Below are positions 3,453 to 64,000 of a DNA stretch of 64,000 nucleotides, one piece after another. The stretch is from Centroscyllium fabricii (taxonomy: Eukaryota), in NCBI GenBank assembly GCA_051313645.2, contig JBNRSN020000024.1, positions 87,792,001-87,856,000 of the forward strand, given 5' to 3'. The translations under genes were made by a program, and so were the position numbers. How positions within the stretch are numbered: the first letter of the stretch is position 1; each line of letters opens with the position of its first letter. The notes under the pieces were generated by a model. The model was given only the letters and a program-made list of their open reading frames with translations. It did not search any database and was not told where the DNA came from.

Positions 3453-3714
3453 TGATGCACGATCAACTACAGCTAATCAACAGAATTAGGTAATCAAGGC
3501 TTTTATTAACAAAAGAACTGAAGTACAGGTCTCAACATTATCTGGTTCCGGAATGTCAGGGGTCAGCAGGGCTGCCACCTTTATACCACAGCCTGTGGGT
3601 GGAGCCTGGGGGCGGAGCCAGCAGAGACATCCCAGGTAGATACAGTGGGACAAGAGGTAACTATATACAGCACAGTATAACAGTGATGGTAAACAGTATT
3701 ACAGGTTTACCACA
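3453..3714 (-). mobile_element. Gypsy-type solo LTR
   Basis: TG...CA ends; 5-bp TSD GATGT (3448-3452, 3715-3719); shares TGTGGTAA start, TATAAA and AATAAAAGCC with the LTRs of the full elements. Confidence 0.8.
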
Positions 3715-24267: not shown

Positions 24268-24555
24268 TGTGGTAATCATGATTACCAGTGTATATAGTTG
24301 AGTACACTACAGACCAGCATGTATAGTGGCTGGGTGCATTGTATATAGTTTTGTATAACGACACTGTCGCGAGGTCAGGTCAGCCACACCTCTAACTCCT
24401 CCCCTTAGGTGAGAGCCTTATAGGTGAGGTCCGACCTGCCCCCATTCATTCTGTACTCAATGTTCGACTGGAGACTAGCTCCATTCTATAGTGATTAAAA
24501 GCCTATAGTGAAGGTAACTACTCGTCTTTGTCTTATTTTTATTGACGATACGTCA
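24268..24555 (+). mobile_element. Gypsy-type solo LTR
   Basis: TGTGGTAA...ATTGACGATACGTCA; TSD GGGTG; similar to the LTRs of the 40911-45992 element. Confidence 0.9.
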
Positions 24556-28023: not shown

Positions 28024-28976
28024 GGAAGGAAAAAAAAATCCCCAAATGCGAAAATGTGAGAAGGTAAATCAACGTCCAATCCGAATGTATGTGTTACTGA
28101 TCATAATGTTTGGCCACTGATTAAGGGGAGGGTATGAAAGATGACATGAATCAGTCACTCATGAAAGAAAGACTTATGAAATAATACTGAGCGGCCTGCT
28201 GGTGGCGCTGTCCAGGGAGAGTATAAATACTCGGGCTCGGGCCCAGCTTGCTCAGGACATTCTTTAACAGGAACTAGTGAAGGACACAACTCGACCTCCA
28301 TGTTGTAAAACAGTTGATTAAAGCTTTGTTTAACACTCAGACCAAATGCCTAGTAGATTTCTTACATCAAAAAAGTTGGCAGGAGCACCTCCCAGCAGCT
28401 TCTCCAGCCGTCTCTTCCCCAGCATAGCTTGGACGTAATCAGCCACGTGAAGGAGCTGAGTGTAACAGAGAGCTTGGTACCGACACAGGGCAACACCACA
28501 GCCCGTCCTTCTTGACCTAGATGTTGACCTGGTGTCAACGCTGAAGAAGGCCCAGCGTTTTACTGTACAGGCTACGTTCCAAATTGCTCCCTCGCTGACA
28601 CCAAAGACCAATGTTCGAAGAGGACACCTGCAAAGCTGGAGCCAATTCTAACCCTCTGTGGAAAAACAAGGAGGAGGAAAAGAAAGCAAAGGGCAGCGTG
28701 AGATCGCTGGAATTTTTACATCAGGCAGCGATCATGGTCTCCAGAGCACCACGATAACATGACACACAGTTGATCCAACCCTATTGTTGCTGCACCCCTG
28801 AATTTCTCCTCCCCTTGCACATGCCTCCCCCATCCCACATGTGTCTCCCACTCCTGCTGCATCAGCCGTTGCGTATTTAACTTTCGGAAGCATGCAGTGA
28901 ACAGACTCCTAGCTCTCTGCCGCGAGGGGTGAAGCTTGAGGTGCATCTGCATTTTTCTGCCAGGCTCCTCCCTCAG

Positions 28977-30330
28977 TCAATCCCGTCTCAGTCCTGCGTC
29001 AATCCTGTCTCAGCCCTGCCTCGGTCCTGCGTCAATCCTGTCTCAGTCCTGCCTCGATCCTGCGTCAATCCCGTCTCAGTCCTGCGTCAATCCTGTCTCA
29101 GTCCTGCATCGGTCCTGCGTCAATCCCGTCTCAGTCCTGCGTCAATCCTGTCTCAGTCCTGCATCAATCCTGTCTCGGTCCTGCGTCAATCCCGTCTCAG
29201 TCCTGCATCAATCCCGTCTCGGTCCTGCATCAATCCTGTCTCGGTCCTGCGTCAATCCCGTCTCAGTCCTGCGTCAATCCTGTCTCAGCCCTGCCTCGGT
29301 CCTGCGTCAATCCTGTCTCAGTCCTGCCTCGATCCTGCGTCAATCCCGTCTCAGTCCTGCGTCAATCCTGTCTCAGTCCTGCATCGGTCCTGCGTCAATC
29401 CCGTCTCAGTCCTGCGTCAATCCTGTCTCAGTCCTGCATCAATCCTGTCTCGGTCCTGCGTCAATCCCGTCTCAGTCCTGCATCAATCCCGTCTCGGTCC
29501 TGCATCAATCCTGTCTCGGTCCTGCGTCAATCCCGTCTCAGTCCTGCGTCAATCCTGTCTCAGTCCTGCATCGATCCTGTCTCAGTCCTGCATCAATCCT
29601 GCCTCGGTCCTGCGTCAATCCCGTCTCGGTCCTGCGTCAATCCTGTCTCAGTCCTGCATCAATCCTGTCTCAGTCCTGCGTCAATCCTGTCTCAGTCCTG
29701 CATCAATCCTGTCTCAGTCCTGCCTCGGTCCTGCGTCAATCCCGTCTCAGTCCTGCATCAATCCCGTCTCAGTCCTGCGTCAATCCTGTCTCAGTCCTGC
29801 ATCGATCCTGTCTCAGTCCTGCATCAATCCTGCCTCGGTCCTGCGTCAATCCCGTCTCGGTCCTGCGTCAATCCTGTCTCAGTCCTGCATCAATCCTGTC
29901 TCAGTCCTGCGTCAATCCTGTCTCAGTCCTGCATCAATCCTGTCTCAGTCCTGCGTCAATCCCGTCTCAGTCCTGCATCAATCCTGTCTCGGTCCTGCAT
30001 CAATCCTGTCTCGGTCCTGCGTCAATCCCGTCTCAGTCCTGCATCAATCCTGTCTCGGTCCTGCGACAATCCCGTCTCAGTCCTGCGTCAATCCTGTCTC
30101 AGTCCTGCCTCGATCCTGCGTCAATCCCGTCTCGGTCCTGCGTCAATCCTGTCTCGGTCCTGCGTCAATCCCGTCTCGGTCCTGCGTCAATCCCGTCTCA
30201 GTCCTGCGTCAATCCCGTCTCAGTCCTGCGTCAATCCCGTCTCAGTCCTGCGTCAATCCCGTCTCAGTCCTGCGTCAATCCTGTCTCAGTCCTGCGTCAA
30301 TCCTGTCTCAGTCCTGCCTCGATCCTGCGT
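28977..30330. repeat. 22-bp minisatellite built from two 11-bp subunits, about 1.35 kb
   Basis: TCAATCC(T/C)GTC + TC(A/G)GTCCTGC(G/A), with occasional extra 11-mers. Confidence 0.95.
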
Positions 30331-31064
30331 CCGTCTTGTCGAGAGGAAGAGCAGATTTCCCATCAACCTTCATATTTGTATTTTCAGCCACATGTAGAGC
30401 AGAACATTGTGGCCAACAGCAGGGATCTATAACTGAACCACAGGGTACTGATCATTGTGTACATGTAAGAGAGAATATTAATCAACAGTGCAAATAAAAT
30501 GTGCCAGAAAAATTATTTTTGTCATGATTCCTATAATTTCAAAACTGAGCAATGCTATTACGGTGTGCAAATATTTATTATGATATACGTATATACATTA
30601 CAATGCAACTATTTATCGCACTATGTATATATTCATTACAGTGTGTGAATATTGCGCTTTGAATATTTTGTTACTTTGTGAATATATATTACGCCGTGAA
30701 TATTTACTATGCTGTGCATATATTTATTACACTTTGTGAATATATTTTTTTTCCAATTCATCACTGGCAAAGCCAGCATTTATTGCCCATCCATAATTGC
30801 CCTTGAGGAGGTGGTGGTGAGCTGCCTGCTTAAACCGCTGAAGGCCACCTCAGAGGGTGGTTCAGAGTTAACCACATTGCTGTGGGTTCTGGAGTCACCT
30901 CGGCCAGACCGGGTAAGGGCGGCAGATTTCCTTCCCTAAAAGACATTAGTGAACCAGATGAGTTTTTACAACAATCCGGTAGTACCTTGGTCACCATTAC
31001 TGATGCTAGTTTTTCATTCCAGATTTTTTTTTTTTAATGAATTTGAATTACCCTGCTGCTGTAT

Positions 31065-40530: not shown

Positions 40531-41910
40531 GTGCAGATCAGCCATGAGCTCATTGAATGGCAGAACAGACTCGAGGGGCTGAATGGCCTCTTCCTGTTCT
40601 CATTTATCACCCTTTGAGTGAAAACATTTTTTTTCTCCAATATCCATCTGTTTTAAATTTACCGTTTATTCGTTTCAGTCGCCGTTCTTCGGTTTGGTGT
40701 GACTGTCCTTAAATCACTAAACCGCAATGCAAACTGCTGTAATGATCAGTTCCAGTCAGGTAGTGATTGGATTAGTGTGTAGCCGCACACAACCCTCCCT
40801 GTAGCTGAGCTTTCCTTACTGAATTACAGATTTCTTTAATTCAATCAACCTGACAAATTTGACAAAAGGCCAGTTTCAAAAACATTAAGAAAGGTTTGTG
40901 TTAATATGAGTGACGTATCGTCAATTCTCTCAATAAAAGACTTAGACGAGTAGTAACCTTAACTACGGGCTTTTATTAACTAACTTTGGAGCTATACTCC
41001 GAACGAACATCCAGAACAGAATGAGGGAGCCCGGCCAGTCCTCACCTATAAAGGGCCTCACCTGGGGGAGGAGTTAGAGGTGTGGCTGACCTGGCTCCAC
41101 GACAGTGTTGCAAACATGATAACAGAACAGCCAATATTGGCGACAATATTACAGTAAAACTATGTATAATACGGTTACCACATTCACCCCTTCTTGAAAA
41201 TTTAAGTCCGGCGGGGTGAATGGACAGAGCAGTTCATTATAAGTTTGTCCGGCGGTCGCGTCTGTCTGGAGGACCGCCGGGGCTCTGGCAGAAGTTCATT
41301 ATGTTCCGTCCCGCTCGGGTCCGGTGGTGGTGACGGTGGCTTTGGTGCCGAAACTTCGGATGCTGGTGGTCTCGGTTGATCTGAGCCATCGGAATGGTGG
41401 TCGTGGGCCGGCCACGGCTGGGGATCTGGATACCTCGGAGGCCACTGTAGATGCAGGGGGTGTTCAAAATACCGTGGCTGGGCGGGCTGCTGCCCGACCA
41501 GTGGCTCTGCTGTGGTGCTCCCGGCGGGCGCTAGGTCCCTGATGGAGACGGTGTCCTCGCGCCCGTCCGGGAACTGTACGTAGGCGTATTGGGGATTCGC
41601 ATGCAGGAGCTGCACCTTGTCCACCAGGGGGTCGGTCTTGTGGCCACGGACGTGCTTTCTAAGGAAGACCGGCCCCGGTGTCGTGAGCCATGGAGGAAGA
41701 GCTGTCCCCGAAGTCGACTTCCTGGGAAAGGAAAACATCAAGTCATGAGGGGTGGCGTTAGTGGCCGTACATAAAAGAGAGCGTATTGAATGCAGCGCGT
41801 CTGGGAGGACTGCCTGCCAATGGGCCACTGGAAGGCCTCTGGACTTCAGAGCCAGGGTGACCGCCTTCCAGATGATCCCATTCTCCCTTTCTACCTGGCC
41901 ATAACCCCCG

Positions 41911-42339
41911 AGTACTCGTTGGAGTTTAGAAGATTGAGAGGCGATCTCATTGAGACGTATAAAATTCTCAAAGGTCTGGACAGGTTAGATTCAGAGAGAA
42001 TGTTTCCAATGGCGGGGGAGTCCAGAACCAGGGGCCACAGTCTAAGAATAAGGGGTAAACCATTTAGGACAGACATGAGGAAGAATTTCTTCACTCAGAG
42101 AGTGGTGGGCCTGTGGAATTCCTTGCCACAGAGGGCGGTGGAGGCCAGTTCATTAAACATATTCAAGAGGGAATTGGATATATTTCTTCAAGCTAAAGGG
42201 ATTAAAGGTTACGGAGAAAAGGCGGGGACAGGGTACTAGCTTGCTAAAGATCAGCCATGATCTCATTGAATGGCGGAGCAGGCTCAAAGGGCTGAATGGC
42301 CTACTCCTGCTCCTATCTTCTATGATTCTATGATTCTAC
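41911..42339 (+). mobile_element. CR1 3' fragment inserted in the Gypsy A integrase
   Basis: YSLEFRRLRGDLIETY... and (ATTCTATG)n tail; breaks the RTTSYNPRGNGQ motif. Confidence 0.9.
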
Positions 42340-45300
42340 AACTGGTCGTTCTGCTCGAGGCAACCCCTTTCTGGAGCAGAAACTGACGCAGTTCGTCGCT
42401 CATGAACGACAACCCCCGGTCGCTATGGATGTAGCTGGGGAGACCGAAAATGGCGAACAGCATGGTGAAGTGTTTTATCACCGTTGCGCTCGTCATATCT
42501 GGGCAGGGGAAGGCGAAGAGGAAGCGGGAGAACTCATCTACGACTGTGAGGAAGTATGAGTTGCGGTCGGTGGTGGGGAGGGGGCCTTTGAAGTCCACGC
42601 TTAGACGTTCAAATGGGCGGGTGGCCTTTATGAGGTGCACCGTGTCTGGCCGGAAAAATTGGGGTTTGCACTCGGCGCAAACAGGGCACTCTCGGGTCAT
42701 AGCCTTGATCTCCGTGATGGAGTAGGGGAGGCTACGGGATCTAACAAAGTGGGCGAGTCTGGTGACACCCGGGTGACAGAGGCGATCGTGGAGATCCTTC
42801 AGCCGGTCTAGCTGGGCACTGGCGCATGTTCCCCTGGACAGTGCGTCCGGGGGTTCATTGAGTTTACCTGGTCGGTAAAGAATGTCATACTCGTAAGTCG
42901 AGAGCTCGATCCGCCACCGCAGGATCTTATCATTCTTGATTTTACCCTTTTGTTTATTATTAAACATAAACGCGACCGACCGTTGGTCGGTGAGCAGGGT
43001 AAAACGCTTACCGGCCAGGTAATGACGCCAGTAGCGCACGGCCTCCACGATGGCCTGGGCCTCCTTTTCCACTGCAGAGTGGCGAGTTTCGGGTCCCTGT
43101 AGGGTGCGGGAGAAAAACGCTACGGGCCTGCCTGCCGGATTCAGGGTGGTGGCAAGAGCAAAGTCCGAAGCGTCACTCTCCACCTGGAAAGGGATGGATT
43201 CATCAACGGCGTGCATGGTCGCCTTGATAATATCTTCCTTGATCCGGGCGAATGGCGTTTGGGCTTCTACCGAGAGGGGGAAGACGGCAGACTTAAGGAG
43301 CGGTCTGGCCTTATCCGCGAACTGGGGAACCCATTGTGCGTAGTAGGAGAAAAATCCTAGGCATCTCCTCAAGGCTTTGGGGTTGTGAGGAAGGGGCAGT
43401 TCTTGTAGGGGGCGCATACACTGTGGGTCGTGGCCGAGGACCCCATTCTCCACCAAGTATCCGAGGATGGCGAGTCGGTCTGTATTAAAGACACATTTGT
43501 CCTTGTTATACGTAAGGTCCAGCTTTTCCGCCGTGTCAAGGAATTTGGCCAGATTGGCATCGTGGTCCTGCTGGTCATGGCTGCAGATGGTCACGTTGTC
43601 CAGGTAAGGGAAGGTGGCCCGCAACCCGTTCTGGTCAACCATGCGGTCCATCTCCCGCTGGAATACCGACACTATGTTGGTCACGCCGAAGGGGACCCGG
43701 AGGAAGTGGTAGATCCGACCGTTCGCCTCGAAGGCGGTGTACGGGCGGTCGGCTTTCCGGATCGGGAGTTGGTGATACACCGACTTAAGGTCGATCGTGG
43801 AGAACACCTTATATTGGGCGATCTGGTTGACCATGTCCGAGATGCGGGGGAGGGGGTAGGCATCGAGCCCGGTGTAGCGGTTAATAGTCTGGCTGTAGTC
43901 AATAACCAGCCGCTGTTTCTCGCCAGTCTTCGCCACTACTACCTGGGCCCGCCAGGGGCTGGTGCTGGTTTCAATTATCCCCTCCTTCAGCATACGCCCG
44001 ACCTCCGACCTGATAAACGTGCGATCCCCCACACTGTACCGCCGACTCTTAGTAGCAATAGGCTTGCAGTTGGGGTCGAGGTTGGTGAACAATGAGGGGG
44101 GGTCGATTTTCAGGGTGGAAAGGCCGCAGGCCGGGCTCCGCTTTGGGAAGGGACTGTCCCGGCTACCGACGGTGAGGGGGGGCAAGGTCCCGCCGAACTC
44201 CATTGTCACGCTCTTGAGGTGGCACTGGAAATCCAGACCTAGTAAGGCTGGGGCACACAACTGTTTGAGGGTGTACAACTTAAAGTTACGGTACACACAA
44301 CCCTTGACTGTGAGCGTGACGGAGCAGTAGCCGGTGACGTCCGCGGTGTGGGACTGTGAAGCAAGGGAGACTTGGTAGCGCGTGGGCAGGATCTGCAGTC
44401 CGTAGCGCTGCGCTGTATCAGGGTGGATAAAGCTCTCTGTGCTTCCAGTGTCGAACAGGCAATTAGTAACATGGCCGTTAATTTGGATCGGCATGATCGA
44501 GTTCGATAGGTTGTGTGGCCTAGCCTGGTCAACTTTAGGTATGGCTGAGGCCGAAGTGTGCCTTTGTGTGTGGGGGCCCCTTGCTGGTTGGGGCTGTACA
44601 CAAGATGGCGGCACCCGTGGCTCGCACATGGTGGGGCGCTGGAGACAAGATGGCGGCGCAGAGGGGTCGCACATGGTGGGCCGCTGGAGACAAGATGGCG
44701 GCGCCCGTGGTTCGCACGCAGCGAGCCGCGGTGGTTGGGTTGGCGGTGCCTGTGATTCGCACGCAGCGGGCCGCGCTGGGTGTGCTGCTGGCGTTGGGGG
44801 GTCGCGCATGGCCGGCTGTGGCTGAGCTTGGCGTGCTGTGGGTGCAGCCGGCCTTTGCCGCATCAGGGTGGGAGATGGGAGCGCTTTTCTTCTACCCCCG
44901 GACCATCGCTGGATCGCGCTGCTATTGCAGCTTACCTGAGGCCTGGCGGAGCTTTCACAGGCTGCGCTGTTGTACCTGGAGTTGGGCGCTGTTGGTGCTG
45001 ATCTGCAGGCCTTCGCATAGTGTCCCTTTTTGGAGCACCTCTCACAGGTCGCGGTCCTCGCTGGGCATCTCGCTCGTGGATGCAGTCCCTGACCGCAGAA
45101 GTAACACCGTTTGTCTGCCTTTGCGGCTGTCGCAGCCATCGTGGGGGTCTCGACCCGTTGTGGTGCTGCCCAGGCCCGGGCCCGTTGTGGCGCTGCCCAT
45201 GCGTCGTAGACCTGCGGGTTTGTGCCGCTGTACGCCTGCAGCTTGTTACGTGCCCCTTCTACAGAGTTTGATATGGAGATCGCCTCCTCTAAGGTCAAAG

Positions 45301-45658
45301 AGTCTTTCTCAAGCAGCCGCTGGCGGGTTTCAACGCACCTCAGGCCTGTTACGTAGGCATCACGGACGAGGAGATTTGCCTCCTCTTCTGCTGTCCGTGC
45401 TTGGCAGCCACAGACCCGTACCAGGGCTTGGAGTGCTTGTTCAAATTGTTCATTTGTCTCACCCGGTAGTTGCGGTCTGGTCGCGAGCACATGTCTGGCG
45501 TAGACCGAGTGGACCGGGCGCTCGTAGCATTTCCGCAGTTTCTCCACTGCCGCTGGGTATGTTTTGGCGTCTCGGATGAGGGAGAATACTCGGCTGGAGA
45601 TCCTAGACCGGAGAACTTGCAGTTTGTTCCCGTCGGTTGTAGCCTTGGCGGCGTCCAT
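42340..45658 (-). pseudogene. gag-pol of Gypsy A (single long frame; integrase interrupted, C-terminal part at 41202-41910)
   Basis: Two CCHC knuckles (CYFCGQGLHPRARC, CERCSKKGHYAKAC), protease LFDTGS, RT YLDN, RNase H ESDASD, integrase HHCC and VDFKGP/HSDRG; gag N-terminus appears deleted relative to element B. Confidence 0.85.
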
Positions 45659-47524
45659 ATAGGCCTCCAGGAGACCGCACCGCTCTCCATTTCAAATTTT
45701 TCTTAGTTAATAAAATTGACGTATCGTCAATTCTCTCAATAAAAGACTTAGACGAGTAGTTACCTTAACTACGGGCTTTTATTAACTAACTTTGGAGCTA
45801 TACTCCGAACGAACATCCAGAACAGAATGAGGGAGCCCGGCCAGTCCTCACCTATAAAGGGCCTCACCTGAGGGAGGAGTTAGAGGTGTGGCTGACCTGG
45901 CTCCACGACAGTGTTGTAAACATGATAACAGAACAGCCAATATTGGCGACAATATTACAGTGGGTAAAACTATGTATAATACGGTTACCACAATGAGCAC
46001 CTTATCGCATCTCAGAATCATCTCAAAAACACTTTGGTTACAACGATGTACTTTGAATGGCAATGGCAAGCACAGCAAGATCCCACACAAAGCAGTGATG
46101 CGAATGGTCCATTAATTTTTTTTTTTACCTTTTTGCCGGTGTTTGTTGAGGGAGGAATGCTGGGAAACCGAGAGAACTCCCTGATTTTCATCTGCTAGTG
46201 CAAAGAGAACCAGCCAGAAGACAAGGCCTGGGTTTAACATCCCGTCCAAAGAGCAGCACCTACGGCAATACTGCACCCCCTCAGTGCTGCCTTCAAGTCT
46301 TGGCTTTGCCCTGAGCCCACTAACCTTCTCATCAAAGGCAAGAGTGCCGTAAAACTGAGGCTGCTGCTCCTCCTCTTCCTCCAACTGCCCCTCCAACCAG
46401 AGCAAACTGGCAATAATGGAGCCCATGATAATCAGATAAAACTTGCCAACCATTATCCCGCCAACAACATCACTAAAGACAGATTATCTGGTCTTTTTTC
46501 TCTCATTGCCGCTTGTGGGAGCTTGCTGTGCGCAAATTGGCTGCCGTGTTTCCCACGTTACAACAGCGACTACACTTCAGAAAGTACTTAATTGGCTGTA
46601 AAGCGCTTTGGGCCTTCCTGAGGTGGTGAAAGGCGCCATAGAAATGCAAGCCAATACCGTTCAGGGGTGATGTCAGGAAGCACGTCTTCACACAAAGGGT
46701 AGCGGAAATCTGAAAACCTCTCCCCCAATACACTGTGGATGCTGGGGGTTAATTGAAATTCTCAAGACCAAGATCGATGAGATTTTTACTGGGTAAGGGT
46801 ATCGGGGCATGTGGAGCTAAGGCGGGAAAATACAGTTGAGGTGCAGATCAGCCACCAATAGAATGGCGGAACAGGCTCGAGGGGCTGAATGGCCTCCTCC
46901 TGGCCCTGTGGAGGGTATAATCGGACAGGGTGTCAAACGGGCATTCGACAGAAGTTTGGCTGCTGCTGATAAATGGCTCTGAATTTTTGGTTTGGTTCCG
47001 GAGATGCTGAATTTCTGCCTACTCTTGGTTTAAAAAAAAAAGTGAACTCATGTTGAGTATTGAAGTATTTTGAGGCGACTCAGACATTGAACTAGTCAAA
47101 GGAAGTGGTTGGAGAGATGCTGCACAGAACCATTGAACAGTGCTGATGGCAATGGTTTGCAAAAGCAGATTGATAATTCACTGACCACAATAGCAAGGGA
47201 CTGGCAAAGGGAGGCTGGTTAAAGGGGAATCGATGAAGCATCTCTACTCCGAGACACCCCGACTGGTTCAAGCCATCGACCGAGAATCAGTGCCGCCTTC
47301 ACTCCGCACTGTCCCAGTCAGTGGGAGTACGTATAGTTTTCCTGAAGGCAGGGGAAAAACTGACTGTCCCATTTGCAGTTTCAAAATTTGCGTTTTGTTT
47401 GCGTGCAAGAGGGAATCTCAATTTTGGGAAGTGAAGATCGGCGGTTTCACATTCAGTGCCACTGGCAGTGATCACTCAAAGCCCATCTCAGCACAAACTG
47501 CGGCTGATGTTCTGCATCACTGCC

Positions 47525-51333: not shown

Positions 51334-51576
51334 TGTAACCGTCAATAACGTCTTCGGAGTCGAATAGTAGGTTATAATAATCAGGCTTTTATTAACTACG
51401 TTAGAGATACTCAACCGAGCTGACTGTCCCCAGAATGGCGCGGGGGATGGGGAACAGTCCCTTATATACCTCCTCCAGCGGGGGAGGAGTCATGGGCGGC
51501 GCCAGGTCTGTCCCTGGGATCTCATACAGGTATTACACGGTATTACAGGTATTATAGTGATATACAGTTTATCACA
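51334..51576 (-). mobile_element. Gypsy-type solo LTR
   Basis: TG...CA; TSD TGGAT; GTTAATAAAAAGCC and ATTGACGGTTACA end on the minus strand. Confidence 0.8.
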
Positions 51577-52296: not shown

Positions 52297-52587
52297 TGAC
52301 GTATCGTCAATAATACAATAATACTAAAGACAAGTAGTTACCTTAACTATAGGCTTTTATTAGCTTTACAAAGGAGCTACGCTCCGGTCGAACATCAGGT
52401 ACAGAATGAATGGGGGCAGGTCAGACCCCACCTATAAGGCACTCACCTGAGGGGAGGAGTTAGAGGTGTGGCTGACCTGACCCTGCGACAGTGTCGTTAT
52501 ACAAAACTATATACAGTGCACCCAGCCGCTATACATGCTGGTTTATATTGTGCTTCACTATTACAGTGGTAAATAACGGTTACCACA
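52297..52587 (-). mobile_element. Gypsy-type solo LTR
   Basis: TGACGTATCGTCAAT...TTACCACA; TSD CAACC; similar to 24268-24555. Confidence 0.9.
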
Positions 52588-52697
52588 CAACCAATGCATC
52601 CACTATCTCTGATGTGGAGGTGCCGGTGTTGGACTGGGGTGGACAAATGCAAGAAGTCACACAACACCAGGTTATAGTCCAACAGTTTTATTTTAAA

Positions 52698-52736
52698 TCA
52701 CAAGCTTTCGGAGCTTCTGCCCCTTCGTCAGGTGAA
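52698..52736 (-). ncRNA. Minimal type I hammerhead ribozyme motif (mirror copy)
   Basis: Reverse complement of 52848-52887. Confidence 0.75.
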
Positions 52737-52847
52737 AGAGAGAGACTGACTTAAAGAACGCACATATGGGAGGAAGAGAGAAATGAGATGTGGGAGATCA
52801 GATTTCTCTCTTCCTCCCATATGTGCGTTCTTTAAGTCAGCTTCTCT

Positions 52848-52887
52848 TTCACCTGACGAAGGGGCAGAAGCTCCGAAAGCTTGTGAT
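52848..52887 (+). ncRNA. Minimal type I hammerhead ribozyme motif
   Basis: TCAC-CTGACGA-A-GGGGC-AGAA-GCTCC-GAAA-GCTT-GTGA: both conserved boxes, stem I TCAC/GTGA, 5-bp stem II, palindromic AGCT stem III. Confidence 0.75.
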
Positions 52888-52985
52888 TTAAAATAAAACT
52901 GTTGGACTCTAACCTGGTGTTGTGTGACTTCTTGCATTTGTCCATTATCTCTGCAGCCACTTATTTTAAGACCCTGGGATGCAGG

Positions 52986-55900
52986 TGTGGTAAACCACTG
53001 TATTACCACTGTACTGTATATACTGTGTGATAAGCTCACTGCATGTAACCTGTCTGGACATGCCCTCTGCTGGCCCCACCTGTGGCTCCTCCCCCAGACC
53101 CAGGTATAAAGGTGACTGTTCCCCAACCCCCCTTCAGTCTCGGACCAGTCACTCAGCAGAAAGGCATGCTTCCTTCTTAGTGAATAAAAGCCTATCTGTT
53201 CTTCGCATAGCTTCTAGTCTTTGGAGTTATTGATAGTGTATCAATTTTATTCACTAAATTTTGTACCATGAAGCAAATACTGAAACCCGCATTGCTCGAA
53301 CTGGATCCGCAATCGGCAGAAGCTTCGTACACCTTCGAACACTGGCTGAGCTGTTTTGAAGCTTTTCTCCAAGCATCCAGCACGACCGTCCGGACAGACG
53401 CCGAAAAACTACAGGACCTCAACTCCCGGGTAGGCCCTCGGGTGTACCTAATGATCAGAGACGCCACGTCCTACCCTGAAGCGATCAGGCTCTTAAAAGG
53501 CCAGTACACGAAGAAGATCAACACGGTCTACGCCAGGCACCTCCTGGCCACCCGCAAGCAACAACCCAGTGAGTCAAGTGACGAATACCTGCGGGTGCTG
53601 CGAATCCTTGGTCGGGCCTGTGACTGTACAGCGGTGACGGCCACAGTGCATACCGAAAGTCTGATCAGGGACGCCTATGTCGCCGGCATCAGGTCGGGCT
53701 ACATCCGACAAAGACTGTTGGAACAGGGTGGGCTCGACCTGCAAAAGACTTTTGAGCTCGCGGACTCGCTAGACGTGGCCCTCAGGAACATGGATGCCTA
53801 TTCCCCTGACCACGCGGCCGCCTCGTGGACATCGCGGGCGCCGCCATCTTGGGACTCGGGAAGGCCGCAGGCCTGCACCACGCCATTTCCGTCACGATCC
53901 ACCAGTGACCCGACGGCAGCGGCGATACCGGGCAGCCCGAAGTGCTACTTCTGCGGCCAGGCCAAGCACCTTAGACAACACTGCCCGGCAAAGGACGCGA
54001 TCTGCTCCAGGTGCGGTAAGAAGGGGCACAACGCCAAGGTGTGCAGAGCCAAACCGGCCCCCAAATTAAGCAGCGCCGCGTGGGGGGGCGCCATCTTGGG
54101 ACCAGGCGCCATCTTGGACACCGCCGGCCACGTGTGAGCCGCGCAGGCCGCCATCTTGGGACCAGGCCCCCGACTCCCCCACCGCCTCAACGGAGTACGA
54201 CTCATCGAACCCAACGCTGGCCTCCATCACCCTGGACCAATCCAGGCCTCATCAACTCGCCAGGTCTATGATGGCCATTAAGGTAAACGGCCGCGCAACG
54301 AACTGCCTATTCGACAGCGGGAGCACAGAGAGTTTCATCCACCCGGATACGGTGCAGCGCTACTCTCTGCCGCTATGGCCAGCAAGCCAAAAGATATCGA
54401 TGGCCTCAAAATCCCATACAGCGGATGTCTGCGGCTACTGCATAGCGACTCTGACGGTGCGGGGCACGGAATATAAAAACTTTAAACTCCTCGTGCTGCC
54501 ACAGCTCTGCGCTGCCGTGCTACTGGGGCTCGACTTCCAATGCCACCTCCAGAGCGTGACAATGGAGTACGGTGGGCCCTTTCCCCCTCTCTCTGTCTGC
54601 AGCCAGCAGGTTTTAAACCGCCCGCAGCACACCATCTGCAGCCTCTCGACCCTTAAAGTCACCCCTCCGCTGTTCACGAACCTCACCCCAGACTGTAAGC
54701 TGGTTACCACCAAGAGTAGGCGGTACAGTATCGGGGACAGGCACTTTTTTAAGTCTGAGGTACAGCGGCTCCTGAAGGAGGGGATCATCGAGGCTAGCAC
54801 CAGCCCCTGGAGAGCCCAAGTGGTGGTGGTCAAGACTGGTGAGAAGCACCGCATGGTCATTGACGACAGTCAGACCATTAATCGATATACGCAGCTGGAT
54901 GCGTAGCCCCTCCCCCGCGTATCTGACATGGTCAATCAGATTGCACAATATTGGTGGTTCTCCGCCATCGATTTGAAGTCTGCGTACCACCAGCTCCCTA
55001 TCCGCCCGGAGGACCGCCAATAAACTGCCATCGAGGCAGATGGCCGTCTCTATCATTTCCTTAGGGTCCCCTTCGGCGTCACTAATGGGGTCTCGGTCTT
55101 CCAGCGGGAGATGGACCGAATGGTTGACCAGAATGGGCTGCAGGCCACATTCCCGTATCTGGATAACGTCACCATCTGCGGCCATGACCAGCAGGATCAC
55201 GACGCCAACCTCCAGAAATTTCTCCACACCGCCAAACTCCTGAACCTGACAAAAAAGGAGAAGTGTGTATTCCGCACAACCTGCCTCGCCATCCTTGGTT
55301 GTGTCGTGGAGAATGGAGTCATCAGCCCCAACCCCGACCGCATGCGCCCCCTCCTGCAGCTCCCCTCCCTCACTGCCTCAAAGCCCTGAAATGATGCCTG
55401 GGCTTCTTTTCATACTACGCCCAGTGGGTCCCCAATTATGCGGACAAGGCCCGCCCCCCTCATCAAGTTCACCTCCTTTCCCCTGACGGCAGAGGCGCGC
55501 CTGGCTTTCAGCGGTATTAAGGCAGACATTGCCACGGCCGCGGTGCACGCCGTGGACGAATCCACCCCGTTCCAGGTGGAGAGCGATGCATCCGATTTTG
55601 CCCTGGCCGCTACCCTTAACCAGGGGGGCAGACCCATGGCCTTCTTTTCATGCACACTCCAGGGCCCCGAAATTCGACACTCCTCTGTTGAAAAGGAGGC
55701 CCAGGCCATTGTAGAAGCCGTACGACACTGGCAGCATTACCTGGCCGGCAGACGATTTACCCTGCTGACTGACCAACGCTCAGTCGCTTTCATGTTCAAC
55801 AATAAGCAGCGGGGCAAAATTAAGAATGACAAGATATTGAGGTGGAGAATCGAACTCTCCACCTACAACTACGATATCTTGTTCCAGCCCCGGAAGCTCA

Positions 55901-57376
55901 ATGAGCCCTCAGATGCCCTATCCCGCGGTACATGTGCCAGCGCACAAGTAGACCGACTGCGGGCCGTCCACGACGACCTCTGCTACCCGGGGGCACCAGG
56001 TTTTTCCACTTTATCAAGGCCCGCAACCTACCTTACTCCATCGAGGAGGTTAGGACCATGACCAAGAACTGCCAGATCTGTGCGGAGTGCAAACCGCACT
56101 TTTATCGGCCAGACAGAGCACTCCTGATAAAGACCACCCGCCCCTTTGAACGCCTGAGTGTCGATTTCAAAGGGCCCCGCCCCTCCTCTGACCGCAACGT
56201 GTACTTCCTCAATGTCATTGATGGGTACTCACATGTCCCCTTTGCCATCCCCTGCTCGGACATGACCTCCTCCACGGTCATTAAGGCCCTGCACAGCCTC
56301 TTCACCCTGTTTGGGTACCCCAGCTATATCCATAGTGACCGGGGGTCCTCTTTTATGAGTGATGAGCTGCGTCAGTATCTGCTCGCCAGGGGCATCGCCA
56401 CGAGCAGGACTACCAGCTACAACCCCCGGGGGAATGGACAGGGAGAGAGGGAGAACGCGACCGTCTGGAAGGCCGCCCTGCTAGCCCTGAAGTCTAGAGG
56501 CCTTCCAGTCTCCTGCTGGCAGAACGTCCTCCCCGACGCGCTCCACTCCATCAGATCGCTCCTCTGTACAGCTGCCAATGCTACCCCTCACAAGAAAATG
56601 TTCGTCTTCCCCAGGAAGTTTGCCTCAGGGACCTCGCTGCCGTCATGGTTGACATCCCCAGGACCCGTCCTACTCCGGAAGCACGTGAGGGGCCATAAGT
56701 CGGACCCCCTGGTCGAGAGGGTGCATCTCCTCCATGCCAACCCTCAGTACACCGATGTGGCGTTCCCTGATGGGCGGGAGGACACGGTCTCCATCAGAGA
56801 TCTGGCACCCTCCGGAGCCTCCGAGACTACCGCACCCCCCACCACCGCCCACGATGCACCAGTGCCACGGTATGTTCTCCCAGACCCTGTGGACAGCACG
56901 CCAATGCCCCGGGATCCGTCGCCACTCACCCGCCACCTCGACGCAGAAGAAGACGACATTCCGGTGCTCCAGACCACCCAGGACCGCTCAACACCGGAAC
57001 CCGCACCACAGCCGGCACGAAGACGGTCGCAGTGGCGGACCAGACCCCCCGACCGCCTCAACATATAGTGACTGTAATCCGCTTCACCCCGCCGGACTCT
57101 TTTTAAACAAGGGGTGAATGTGGTAAACCACTGTATTACCACTGTACTGTATATACTGTGTGATAAGCTCACTGCATGTAACCTGTCTGGACATGCCCTC
57201 TGCTGGCCCCGCCTGTGGCTCCTCCCCCGGACCCAGGTATAAAGGTGACTGTTCCCCAACCCCCCTCCAGTCTCGGACCAGTCACTCAGCAGAAAGGCAT
57301 GCTTCCTTCTTAGTGTATAAAAGCCTATCTGTTCTTCGCATAACTTCTAGTCTTTGGAGTAATTGATAGTGTGTCA
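52986..57376 (+). mobile_element. Full-length Gypsy/Ty3-type LTR retrotransposon B
   Basis: 258-bp LTRs 52986-53243 and 57119-57376 (7 substitutions by eye); TSD GCAGG; PPT AAGGGGTGAA. Confidence 0.95.
53268..57068 (+). pseudogene. gag-pol of Gypsy B, disrupted by stops and frameshifts
   Basis: gag 53268-54137, protease LFDSGS, RT YLDN, RNase H ESDASD, integrase 55932-57068; premature stops at 54904 and 55021. Confidence 0.9.
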
Positions 57377-61430: not shown

Positions 61431-61729
61431 ATGAAGCGGTTGCGTAGTGATGATGCTGATCAGTCTGAAGTCATTGGTTTGAATCCGCACACGGATGACA
61501 TGTTCACCGAGCATGATGAGCTGGAATTTTCCTTTTCCGCTCTCGGGCAGTCCACTGTGTCCAAGGGCCCATTGTCTTCTCCTCACAACATTTTGAAAAA
61601 GCCAGCTCATCGCTACCACTTTCGCGAAGGTGACGCCTCAAAAGCCAAGGCACCAATGGATTCCATTTTCTCGAAAGGTTATCAAACTTCACCAAAAGCT
61701 AGTGGAGCGGAAGTCCAGGAAAATGTAAA
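61431..61729 (+). CDS. TRPV1: First coding exon of a TRPV channel, probably TRPV1
   Basis: tttcAG acceptor at 61345-61346, ATG at 61431, phase-2 GTAAGT donor at 61730; MKRLRSDDADQSEV...GDASKAKAPMDSIF resembles the avian TRPV1 N-terminus (APMDS motif) as recalled; lies downstream of SHPK on the same strand. Confidence 0.75.
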
Positions 61730-61837
61730 GTAAGTGGGCAGCTCGTGATGGGTGTATGATTGAGTAAAAAGAAGTTACTGGGCAGTGCAAAAAACATGGG
61801 TCAGAGGACACAAAGAACCATGACATTAAAGCTGGTG

Positions 61838-64000
61838 GGGGTTTATACACAGTGCAGCCTGTATAGGGTACTCGAGGCGTTTATACACAGTGCAGCCTGT
61901 ATAGGGTACTCGAGGGGTTTATACACAGTGCAGCCTGTATAGGGTACTCGAGGGGTTTATACACAGTGCAGCCTGTATAGGGTACTAGAGGGGTTTATAC
62001 ACAGTGCAGCCTGTATAGGGTACTCGAGGGGTTTATGCACAGTGCAGCCTGTATAGGGCACTCGAGGGGTTTATACACAGTGCAGCCTGTATAGGATACT
62101 CGAGGGGTTTATACACGGTGCAGCCTGTATAGGGTACTCGAGGGGTTTATACACGGTGCAGCCTGTATAGGGTACTCGAGGGGTTTATACACAGTGCAGC
62201 CTGTATAGGGTACTCGAGGGGTTTATACACGGTGCAGCCTGTATAGGGTACTAGAGGGGTTTATACACGGTGCAGCCTGTATAGGGTACTCGAGGGGTTT
62301 ATACACAGTGCAGCCTGTATAGGGTACTCGAGGGGTTTATACACGGTGCAGCCTGTATAGGGTACTAGAGGGGTTTATACACGGTGCAGCCTGTATAGGG
62401 TACTCGAGGGGTTTATACACAGTGCAGCCTGTATAGGGTACTCGAGGGGTTTATACACAGTGCAGCCTGTATAGGGTACTCGAGGGGTTTATACACAGTG
62501 CAGCCTGTATAGGGTACTATAGGGGTTTATACACGGTGCAGCCTGTATAGGGCACTCGAGGGGTTTATACACAGTGCAGCCTGTATAGGGTATCGAGGGG
62601 TTTATACACAGTCCAGCCTGTATAGGGTACTCGAGGGGTTTATACACAGTGCAGCCTGTATAGGGTACTCGAGGGGTTTATACACAGTGCAGCCTGTATA
62701 GGGTACTCGAGGGGTTTATACACAGTGCAGCCTGTATAGGGTACTCGAGGGGTTTATACACAGTGCAGCCTGTATAGGGTACTCAAGGGGTTTATACACG
62801 GTGCAGCCTGTATAGGGTACTCGAGGGGTTTATACACGGTGCAGCCTGTATAGGGCACTCGAGGGGTTTATACACAGTGCAGCCTGTATAGGGCACTCGA
62901 GGGGTTTATACACGGTGCAGCCTGTATAGGGTACTCGAGGGGTTTATACACGGTGCAGCCTGTATAGGGCACTCGAGGGGTTTATACACAGTGCAGCCTG
63001 TATAGGGCACTCGAGGGGTTTATACACGGTGCAGCCTGTATAGGGTACTCGAGGGGTTTATACACGGTGCAGCCTGTATAGGGTACTCGAGGGGTTTATA
63101 CACAGTGCAGCCTGTATAGGGTACTCGAGGGGTTTATACACAGTGCAGCCTGTATAGGGTACTCGAGGGGTTTATACACAGTGCAGCCTGTATAGGGTAC
63201 TCGAGGGGTTTATACACAGTGCAGCCTGTATAGGGTACTCGAGGGGTTTATACACAGTGCAGCCTGTATAGGGTACTCGAGGGGTTTATACACAGTGCAG
63301 CCTGTATAGGGTACTCGAGGGGTTTATACACAGTGCAGCTTGTATAGGGTACTCGAGGGGTTTATACACAGTGCAGCCTGTATAGGGTACTCGAGGGGTT
63401 TATACACAGTGCAGCCTGTATAGGGTATTCGAGGGGTTTATACACAGTGCAGCCTGTATAGGGTACTCGAGGGGTTTATACACGGTGCAGCCTGTATAGG
63501 GTACTCGAGGGGTTTATACACAGTGCAGCCTGTATAGGGTACTCGAGGGGTTTATACACAGTGCAGCCTGTATAGGGTACTCGAGGGGTTTATACACGGT
63601 GCAGCCTGTATAGGGTACTCGAGGGGTTTATACACAGTGCAGCCTGTATAGGGTACTCGAGGGGTTTATACACGGTGCAGCCTGTATAGGGTACTCGAGG
63701 GGTTTATACACAGTGCAGCCTGTATAGGGTACTCGAGGGGTTTATACACAGTGCAGCCTGTATAGGGCACTCGAGGGGTTTATACACAGTGCAGCCTGTA
63801 TAGGGTATCGAGGGGTTTATACACAGTCCAGCCTGTATAGGGTACTCGAGGGGTTTATACACAGTGCAGCCTGTATAGGGTACTCGAGGCGTTTATACAC
63901 AGTGCAGCCTGTATAGGGTACTAGAGGGGTTTATACACGGTGCAGCCTGTATAGGGTACTCGAGGGGTTTATACACAGTGCAGCCTGTATAGGGTACTCG
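61838..64000. repeat. 38-bp minisatellite, about 57 copies, runs off the window end
   Basis: GGGTTTATACAC(A/G)GTGCAGCCTGTATAGGGTACTCGAG. Confidence 0.97.

Follow-up and report, generated by a model that had tools for sequence, protein, structure and literature searches.

How does a Ty3/Gypsy element prime its reverse transcription when the position just past its 5' LTR carries no tRNA motif and complements the LTR itself? Element A raises this question; it is one of five insertions, each flanked by 5-bp target duplications (elements A and B and three solo LTRs of A's clade; Table 1), in a 64-kb stretch of the Centroscyllium fabricii genome, hereafter the window. Its LTRs, target duplication and domain order (protease-RT-RNase H-integrase) make A a Ty3/Gypsy type; it has decayed, having lost a short piece close to the gag start and gained a LINE fragment within its integrase region (~41913-42335). 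Our main reading, to which we give a probability of about three in four, is that the capped first ~52 nt of the element mRNA would be cut at AAAA^GCC and serve as primer for reverse transcription; that A's lineage is self-priming in some form we regard as close to certain.

Table 1 Features of elements A and B and of related solo LTRs, in positions of the window
Feature	Position	Strand	Description
Gypsy element A	40911..45992	-	5.1 kb; 5-bp target duplication CTCAT
5' LTR of A	45717..45992	-	276 bp, TG...CA
TATA-like box TTTATAGG of A	45851..45858	-	Assigned by sequence; spacing matches related families
Putative 52-nt primer of A	45777..45828	-	Initiator A 45828 (CTCA+1TTC) through S end; suggested by run-on and truncation peaks
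Small hairpin GGAG-TATAG-CTCC	45794..45806	-	Just upstream of S; by eye, unscored
Segment S TTAGTTAATAAAA	45777..45789	-	Putative 3' end of primer; holds AATAAA hexamer
GCC...GGT helix	45762..45776	-	Directly after putative cut (between 45777 and 45776)
U5-terminal hairpin TTGACG-ATA-CGTCAA	45714..45732	-	Includes 1-nt spacer A at 45716
P, primer-binding position TTTTATTAACTAA	45703..45715	-	Complement of S; without TGG tRNA motif
gag-pol frame of A	42320..45691	-	Two CCHC knuckles, protease, RT (YLDN), RNase H, integrase core (interrupted)
Polypurine tract CAAGAAGGGGTGAA of A	41183..41197	-	Precedes 3' LTR
3' LTR of A	40911..41182	-	272 bp; S at 40971-40983, no P following
Gypsy element B	52986..57376	+	LTRs 52986-53243 and 57119-57376; target duplication GCAGG
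Element B S and P	S 53177-53189, P 53245-53257	+	
Solo LTR, same clade as A	3453..3714	-	
Solo LTR, same clade as A	24268..24555	+	
Solo LTR, same clade as A	52297..52587	-	

The window also contains an extra LTR fragment of the same clade (~51400-51505, minus strand) with a TATA, an initiator-like motif and an S-like segment; a near-perfect (95%) 305-bp palindrome between a solo LTR and element B (52640-52944); and tandem arrays at ~28870-30450 and 61720-64000, with units of 11 bp and 38 bp.

A fold-back between the LTR and the primer-binding position

As the original prediction stated, S and P of A are exact complements on the minus strand, and the LTR closes with a hairpin, AATTGACG-ATA-CGTCAATT; P begins one base past the LTR-terminal CA. 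The accompanying observations also hold: element B carries the G-C version of the base pair that is swapped in A (TTAGTGAATAAAA / TTTTATTCACTAA), the 1-nt spacer is the same in both elements, and all three solo LTRs terminate in TTGA-N-TCA. The leader region of A folds at z = -3.07 (200 shuffles), with predicted pair probabilities of 0.57-0.99 for the 13-bp S-P helix; the terminal hairpin competes with this long helix, because the last two pairs of the 8-bp hairpin take the first two T of P. A search of Rfam gave no match at E <= 1.

Among 26 representatives of the clade, P lies directly after the LTR end and a short spacer, S mostly terminates in AAA and is followed by RCC, and three positions within the junction hardly ever pair. 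In 15 of 20 families, against 5.4 expected, a helix (RCCU/AGGY) abuts the end of S; the GCC...GGT helix measures 3 bp in element A and at least 4 bp in most families. Across copies, the small hairpin before S keeps its stem while its loop varies (by eye, unscored). A documented tRNA primer had been named as grounds for giving up the original interpretation; judged by the motif at the primer-binding position, none of the 26 elements has a tRNA site, in that none starts TGG, and 25 start TT. Two other primers were considered and rejected: a common external primer, since P differs by family, and the poly(A) tail, since the paired A's are encoded by the LTR and their number matches that of the T's.

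S and P change together

Pattern counts over the 7.2-Gb genome gave 3,068 exact family A matches with A at position 8 of P and 766 with another base, which was G in 99 of 100 among the matches listed; joint counts of S and P alleles rest on fetched samples. In these, S had C in 30/30 copies with P=G and T in 27/30 copies with P=A; one of the other three had S replaced by an insertion, and two had S=C with T in the 3' LTR, so that their changes arose after insertion. Linkage between S and P reached r2 = 0.92, every site between them having at most 0.78, in 125 family A copies (after removing 4 with foreign U3); mapping on these copies, which is noisy, found no hot spot of strand transfer or recombination. 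A looser pattern returned 18,214 matches from other families. Thirty of these copies were fetched, one without S, and positions 8-9 both matched in 25/29, all four mismatching copies being CpG-type transitions.

In an alignment of 23 leaders, the two helices are 96.8% paired with 36 double-change cells, a score reached by 0/500 shuffles, and slid controls are 30-45% paired. Double changes fall on three pairs of the S-P helix and two of the terminal hairpin, and a C-G / U-A change in the U5-terminal hairpin is seen in 7 of the 23 rows. Rare P variants, compensated in 2/14 (probably one duplicated event) and 0/30, show the pattern expected of decay after insertion and are no demonstration of templating.

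More distant relatives, comprising 80 metagenome and 9 genome-contig loci, extend this. The gag start was located in 39 of the 89, three of which lay too near a contig end, leaving 36 to be scanned for stems: a strict Watson-Crick stem of 11-18 bp in the same register was found in 27, and one of 7-10 bp in 9, with L073, counted as a miss from a wrongly picked gag, having a stem of 15 bp. Stems of P with its own LTR measure 11-25 nt, and when P was swapped among 20 families the mean fell to 4.7, with 8/380 combinations reaching 10-11. The loop between S and P is 24-70 nt in this clade. The representatives have no G-U pairs at S-P positions 1-14, an absence partly built in because they were picked for strict stems.

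Selection on RNA structure had been proposed as the cause of the compensatory changes, to be dropped if wider alignments showed no covariation. Covariation is present clade-wide, and selection stands as the explanation for the small helices (the U5-terminal hairpin and RCCU/AGGY). It does not fully account for the S-P helix, where P seems to be copied afresh from S at every replication cycle, S being the putative 3' end of the primer; matched changes would thus arise without a second independent mutation.

Several individual copies deserve mention. Variants at P position 10 include many transversions (14 A, 12 G and 16 T; n=42) with S unchanged, which may reflect error-prone copying near the primer end. 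L036, compared with L035, L043 and L044, has ~19 nt of complementarity, gained through a change of position 14, as though the leader had been overwritten by a primer copy of slightly greater length. In four family A copies (L014, L158, L202 and L004), other elements are inserted between S and gag. The one in L014 is CsRN1-like and tRNA-primed, and the LTR end there shows a 4-bp duplication, CAAT; we rejected nested insertions as the source of the L014 junction pattern, which is a plain insertion with that duplication.

Run-on copies point to a probable 5' end for the primer

Related families carry a TATA 69-77 nt before S (23 of 30 copies). An initiator-like TCA(T/G)TC stands at about TATA+30, whether the TATA is at -70 or -77; this spacing, together with the initiator near +30, would place S inside the transcript. 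We compared the resulting start site, fixed from the motif (TATA+30) independently of what follows, with the ends of run-ons, that is, copies in which P continues as an inverted copy of the LTR. Three patterns gave 36 + 385 + 10 = 431 matches, ~1-2% of normal copies (with denominators from different patterns); they are blind to run-ons under ~24 nt. Of 145 matches examined, 132 were kept, after 12 false ends at which the LTR resumes and one duplicate had been dropped.

The 132 run-ons end before the start site in 36 cases, within 1 nt of it in 24, in the next 49 positions in 7, further into U3 in 9 and near the LTR start in 56. The start-site peak amounts to 8.0 ends per position against 1.38 before it and 0.14 after it (Poisson p = 2e-11). 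An RNA 5' end gives a reason for stopping there, and a DNA template gives none. The 25 start-site run-ons have 24 distinct junctions and an identity to their own LTRs of 1048/1094; only 6 of them join element ORF sequence within 60 nt. In L238, a 54-nt inverted LTR copy (53/54 matches) runs from the S end exactly to the initiator A, after which gag ~150 nt downstream is joined by microhomology. A C follows 9/17 run-ons ending at +1 or the base before, against 7/36 shorter ones, which is no more than suggestive of an extra C copied from the cap.

Not all run-ons share one cause, since 56 of the 132 traverse U3 to the LTR start and so stem from DNA fold-backs or other templates. The best reading of this long class is plus-strand DNA folded back on itself: of 21 testable cases, 12 consist of palindromic LTR pairs flanked by a 5-bp duplication. 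Some run-ons pass through U3 into the complement of the polypurine tract. Palindromic insertions composed of LTR, primer site and inverted R-U3, with 5-bp duplications, occur at L335, L337, L356, L362, L364, L373, L374, L405, L407, L409, L412 and L440, and are apparently fold-back cDNAs inserted by integrase through two U3 ends.

TATA and initiator scans of non-shark relatives gave no fixed distance to S, which confines support for the 52-nt length to the families of this genome. Six such relatives (L062, L096, L098, L112, L093 and L031) have a splice-acceptor-like pyrimidine tract and AG within 110 nt upstream of the S end, and the 5' part of the primer in non-shark relatives may be spliced at these AG sites.

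Truncated copies point to a probable cut site

If the template is cut at the S end, strong-stop DNA would end there, and a wrong jump would leave an LTR beginning with GCC. Among 144 aberrant copies, the left end lies within -1 to +4 of the S end in 12 and at the start site in one; another 14 ends are spread over the 45 positions between, 17 lie further into U5, and 100 copies are truncated further upstream or whole. Copies without their own S region begin at the S end in 13 of 37 cases (p = 2e-5). In several S-end truncations, the DNA upstream is internal element sequence; in L444/L445 (G000:C822, ~30,006,400-30,010,900), a short derivative, both LTRs begin with sequence of the gag-protease spacer, which replaces U3 and most of R and is joined at a shared AGCC. 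A genome-wide count of S-end truncations gave just 4 matches, with 1 for the control, and three of the four are at loci already in the sample; numbers this small lend no further support.

The chief uncertainty concerns the start-site peak, which could instead come from P-ended plus-strand DNA re-annealing to S of another, uncut RNA molecule; against this, the truncation peak speaks for a template that has been cut.

A model for self-priming

The pairing and its covariation, the missing tRNA site, the distance from TATA to S and both scar peaks were observed; on them we build the following scheme, whose start site, cut and poly(A) site are deduced from the DNA sequence. Transcription would start at the initiator 30 nt after the TATA, ~40 nt upstream of S, as the motifs indicate and the run-on ends support. 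S, whose partnership with P is established by covariation, is predicted to form with it a helix stacked on RCCU/AGGY and beside the U5-terminal hairpin. Cutting of the RNA at the S end, a site to which the truncation scars point, would leave a 3'-OH paired on P; the nuclease is probably the element's own RNase H, by analogy with Tf1 as set out in parts of PMC4600332 and PMC5341516, and RNase H catalytic motifs are present. Minus strong-stop DNA, running from the LTR end as far as the cut, would then span only ~55-60 nt and would transfer to the 3' R through the stretch between S and the poly(A) site. Plus-strand synthesis would copy the primer, rewriting P from S every cycle and normally keeping 13 nt; in the observed run-ons, copying would have continued, often to the cap. 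Candidates for the retention of only 13 nt are the small hairpin upstream of S and trimming of a 3' flap. As a likely second effect, with modest support, S-P pairing would hide AAUAAA in the 5' LTR only.

If this is true, RT or RNase H must cut RNA at an internal helix junction, copying must normally stop after 13 nt of a 52-nt primer, and a large animal lineage outside Tf1/sushi would be independent both of host tRNA and of silencing by tRNA fragments. Run-on and truncation scars used as a primer map would be applicable to other elements without a tRNA site, and priming mechanisms would be readable from assemblies alone.

Other explanations

The scars and motifs bear on two further forms of self-priming. 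A primer supplied by the 3' R copy, or in trans by a separate short LTR transcript, with the 5' end of the template left uncut, would suit the presence of S in both LTRs, the thousands of LTR copies that could yield short transcripts, and the run-ons that reach the polypurine tract complement via U3. With an uncut template, however, strong-stop DNA that transferred wrongly would be expected to produce truncations at the start site, where a single one was seen against the dozen at the S end, and long run-ons mostly stop at the LTR start with 5-bp duplications in the proportion given above, which fits DNA fold-back plus integrase; we consider this origin of the primer unlikely, though a transcript acting in trans and starting at that same site could have supplied it. 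Still less likely is a short primer in the style of Tf1, in which a second transcript of 13 nt would start at the first base of S and the TATA transcript would be only mRNA or a bystander template. Complementarity does normally stop sharply at 13-14 nt, Tf2 has alternative start sites that differ in priming ability (reported in part of PMC5341516), and a 13-nt class would be invisible in run-on data that leave lengths under ~24 nt unsampled; but no TATA lies 30 nt before S, unlike in sushi-like elements of the same genome, S starts with U, and the run-ons go unbroken from P to the upstream initiator.

Alternatively, the helix might have no role beyond masking the 5' poly(A) signal (or regulating translation or packaging), and a host RNA might be the primer. 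S contains the hexamer A(A/T)TAAA (AATAAA or ATTAAA) in 12 of 20 families, P is found only at the element's 5' end whereas S is in both LTRs, and the predicted unpaired probability of AAUAAA is 0-0.15 in the 5' LTR. In the 3' LTR, however, AAUAAA is also predicted to be largely paired (unpaired 0.14-0.78), making the contrast modest; the other 8 families keep the helix without a hexamer in S; no single host RNA fits a P that varies by family, 1 nt from the LTR end; and the run-on and truncation peaks are left unexplained. We hold this explanation to be improbable. A chance origin of the helix is already refuted, and chance complementarity or an assembly artefact is scarcely credible as an account of the whole: S and P are AT-rich and palindromic run-on copies can trouble assemblers, but the swap and shuffle controls, the thousands of copies and the independent assemblies speak against both, and against an artefact stand also the near-complete distinctness of the start-site junctions, their less than 100% identity to the LTR and the target duplications.

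Relation to known elements

The RT phylogeny called for by the original prediction, a quick IQ-TREE of RT-RNase H, sets a 47-row clade (SH-aLRT 100) on a branch apart from 7 chromodomain-type rows; the comparison is with this genome's own chromodomain-type elements, named Tf1 or sushi sequences not being among the rows, and identity to them is 28-30%. None of 12 full-length relatives matches Chromo at E <= 0.05, A's own integrase end being interrupted.

Self-priming has been shown experimentally in fission-yeast Tf1 and is regarded as a hallmark of Tf1/sushi chromoviruses. According to portions of the literature (bioRxiv 10.1101/2022.12.06.519325, PMC4600332, PMC11042837, PMC5341516), Tf1, Tf2, Tj1 and Tf1/sushi elements are primed from their own mRNA without a tRNA site, and their PBS, complementary to a segment of the 5' LTR and copied into the cDNA end, lies in a multi-helix junction. 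A's clade is like them in lacking a tRNA site and in a PBS that complements the element's own 5' LTR. It differs in that the Tf1/sushi self-primer is the very 5' end of the mRNA, whereas the paired 11-18 nt of this clade would be the 3' end of a ~52-nt piece, and in lacking a chromodomain, in the poly(A) hexamer often present in S and in its short loop. For the three-duplex 'pretzel' of Tf1/sushi, with PBS-adjacent sequence paired with LTR sequence (as outlined in part of bioRxiv 10.1101/2022.12.06.519325), the comparison gives a mixed picture: this clade does have two extra helices near P (RCCU/AGGY and the U5-terminal hairpin), but both are local hairpins, and that particular arrangement was not matched.

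Sushi-like copies of the same genome have an 11-nt self-complement ~30 nt after TATAAA, with a loop of ~410 nt (4/8 regions). In the sushi-like chromoviruses L266, L267, L269 and L270, 11-nt self-primers covary with the primer site (GTCGGAGTGTT vs GTCGGATTGTT), and two of these regions hold tandem copies sharing one LTR. CsRN1-like, tRNA-primed Gypsy elements of this genome (L274, L275) resemble A's clade in a primer site right after the 5' LTR that is rewritten from the primer each cycle, as P would be; unlike that clade, they have the site TGGTGACCCCG, a separate RT branch and a host primer.

By features, A's lineage resembles the Cigr-1 clade ('Gypsy-Cigr' in RepeatMasker), to which Cigr-1 of Ciona intestinalis belongs: it has two CCHC arrays and a single ORF of ~1,200 aa, the length also of the Cigr-1 ORF, its integrase follows RNase H, and chromodomain and env are both absent. 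Such an architecture of two CCHC arrays and integrase after RNase H, with neither chromodomain nor env, is described for the Cigr-1 clade in part of PMC2774666, where the Mag and Osvaldo clades likewise carry two CCHC arrays; the label Cigr-1 for A's lineage would thus be a placement by matching features alone. The main text of mollusc and annelid surveys that list Cigr (PMC6238403, PMC8556966) does not mention a PBS. In plants, self-priming has been predicted from PBS-LTR complementarity for TAR Copia (Houba, Osr-1) and for Tcn1, and TAR shows that it arose outside chromoviruses (both from part of PMC6317226); TAR belongs to another superfamily, Tcn1 is a chromovirus and the hosts are plants, whereas the present clade is animal Gypsy.

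Within the parts of the literature covered, which also include parts of PMC3601003, PMC6934838, PMC8220671 and PMC5445492, we found no account of self-priming by an animal Gypsy clade other than chromoviruses, nor of a long self-primer; the pairing could already be remarked on in Repbase reports or by Butler et al. 2001, which lay outside the search. The putative ~52-nt self-primer is likely much longer than that known from yeast Tf1. We lean towards, rather than assert, the broadest reading: that a widespread non-chromovirus animal Gypsy lineage would be self-priming independently of Tf1/sushi, with a new structured, capped ~52-nt primer whose cut would fall at a helix junction directly behind the poly(A) hexamer; that one helix would both make the primer and hide the 5' poly(A) signal; and that hundreds of mis-copied elements would record both primer ends.

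The clade has >20,000 5' ends in this genome. A database scan found no relatives in viral contigs; among named proteins, those of sharks and rays come nearest (77-80% identity), ahead of ones from corals, a sea anemone, a nematode and a psyllid. Many members, element A among them, have YLDN as their RT motif, and others have YLDD (for example L051, L052, L058 and L096). Complete animal-type Gypsy elements also occur in prokaryotic genome bins (L111-L118), and are probably host DNA carried into the bins.
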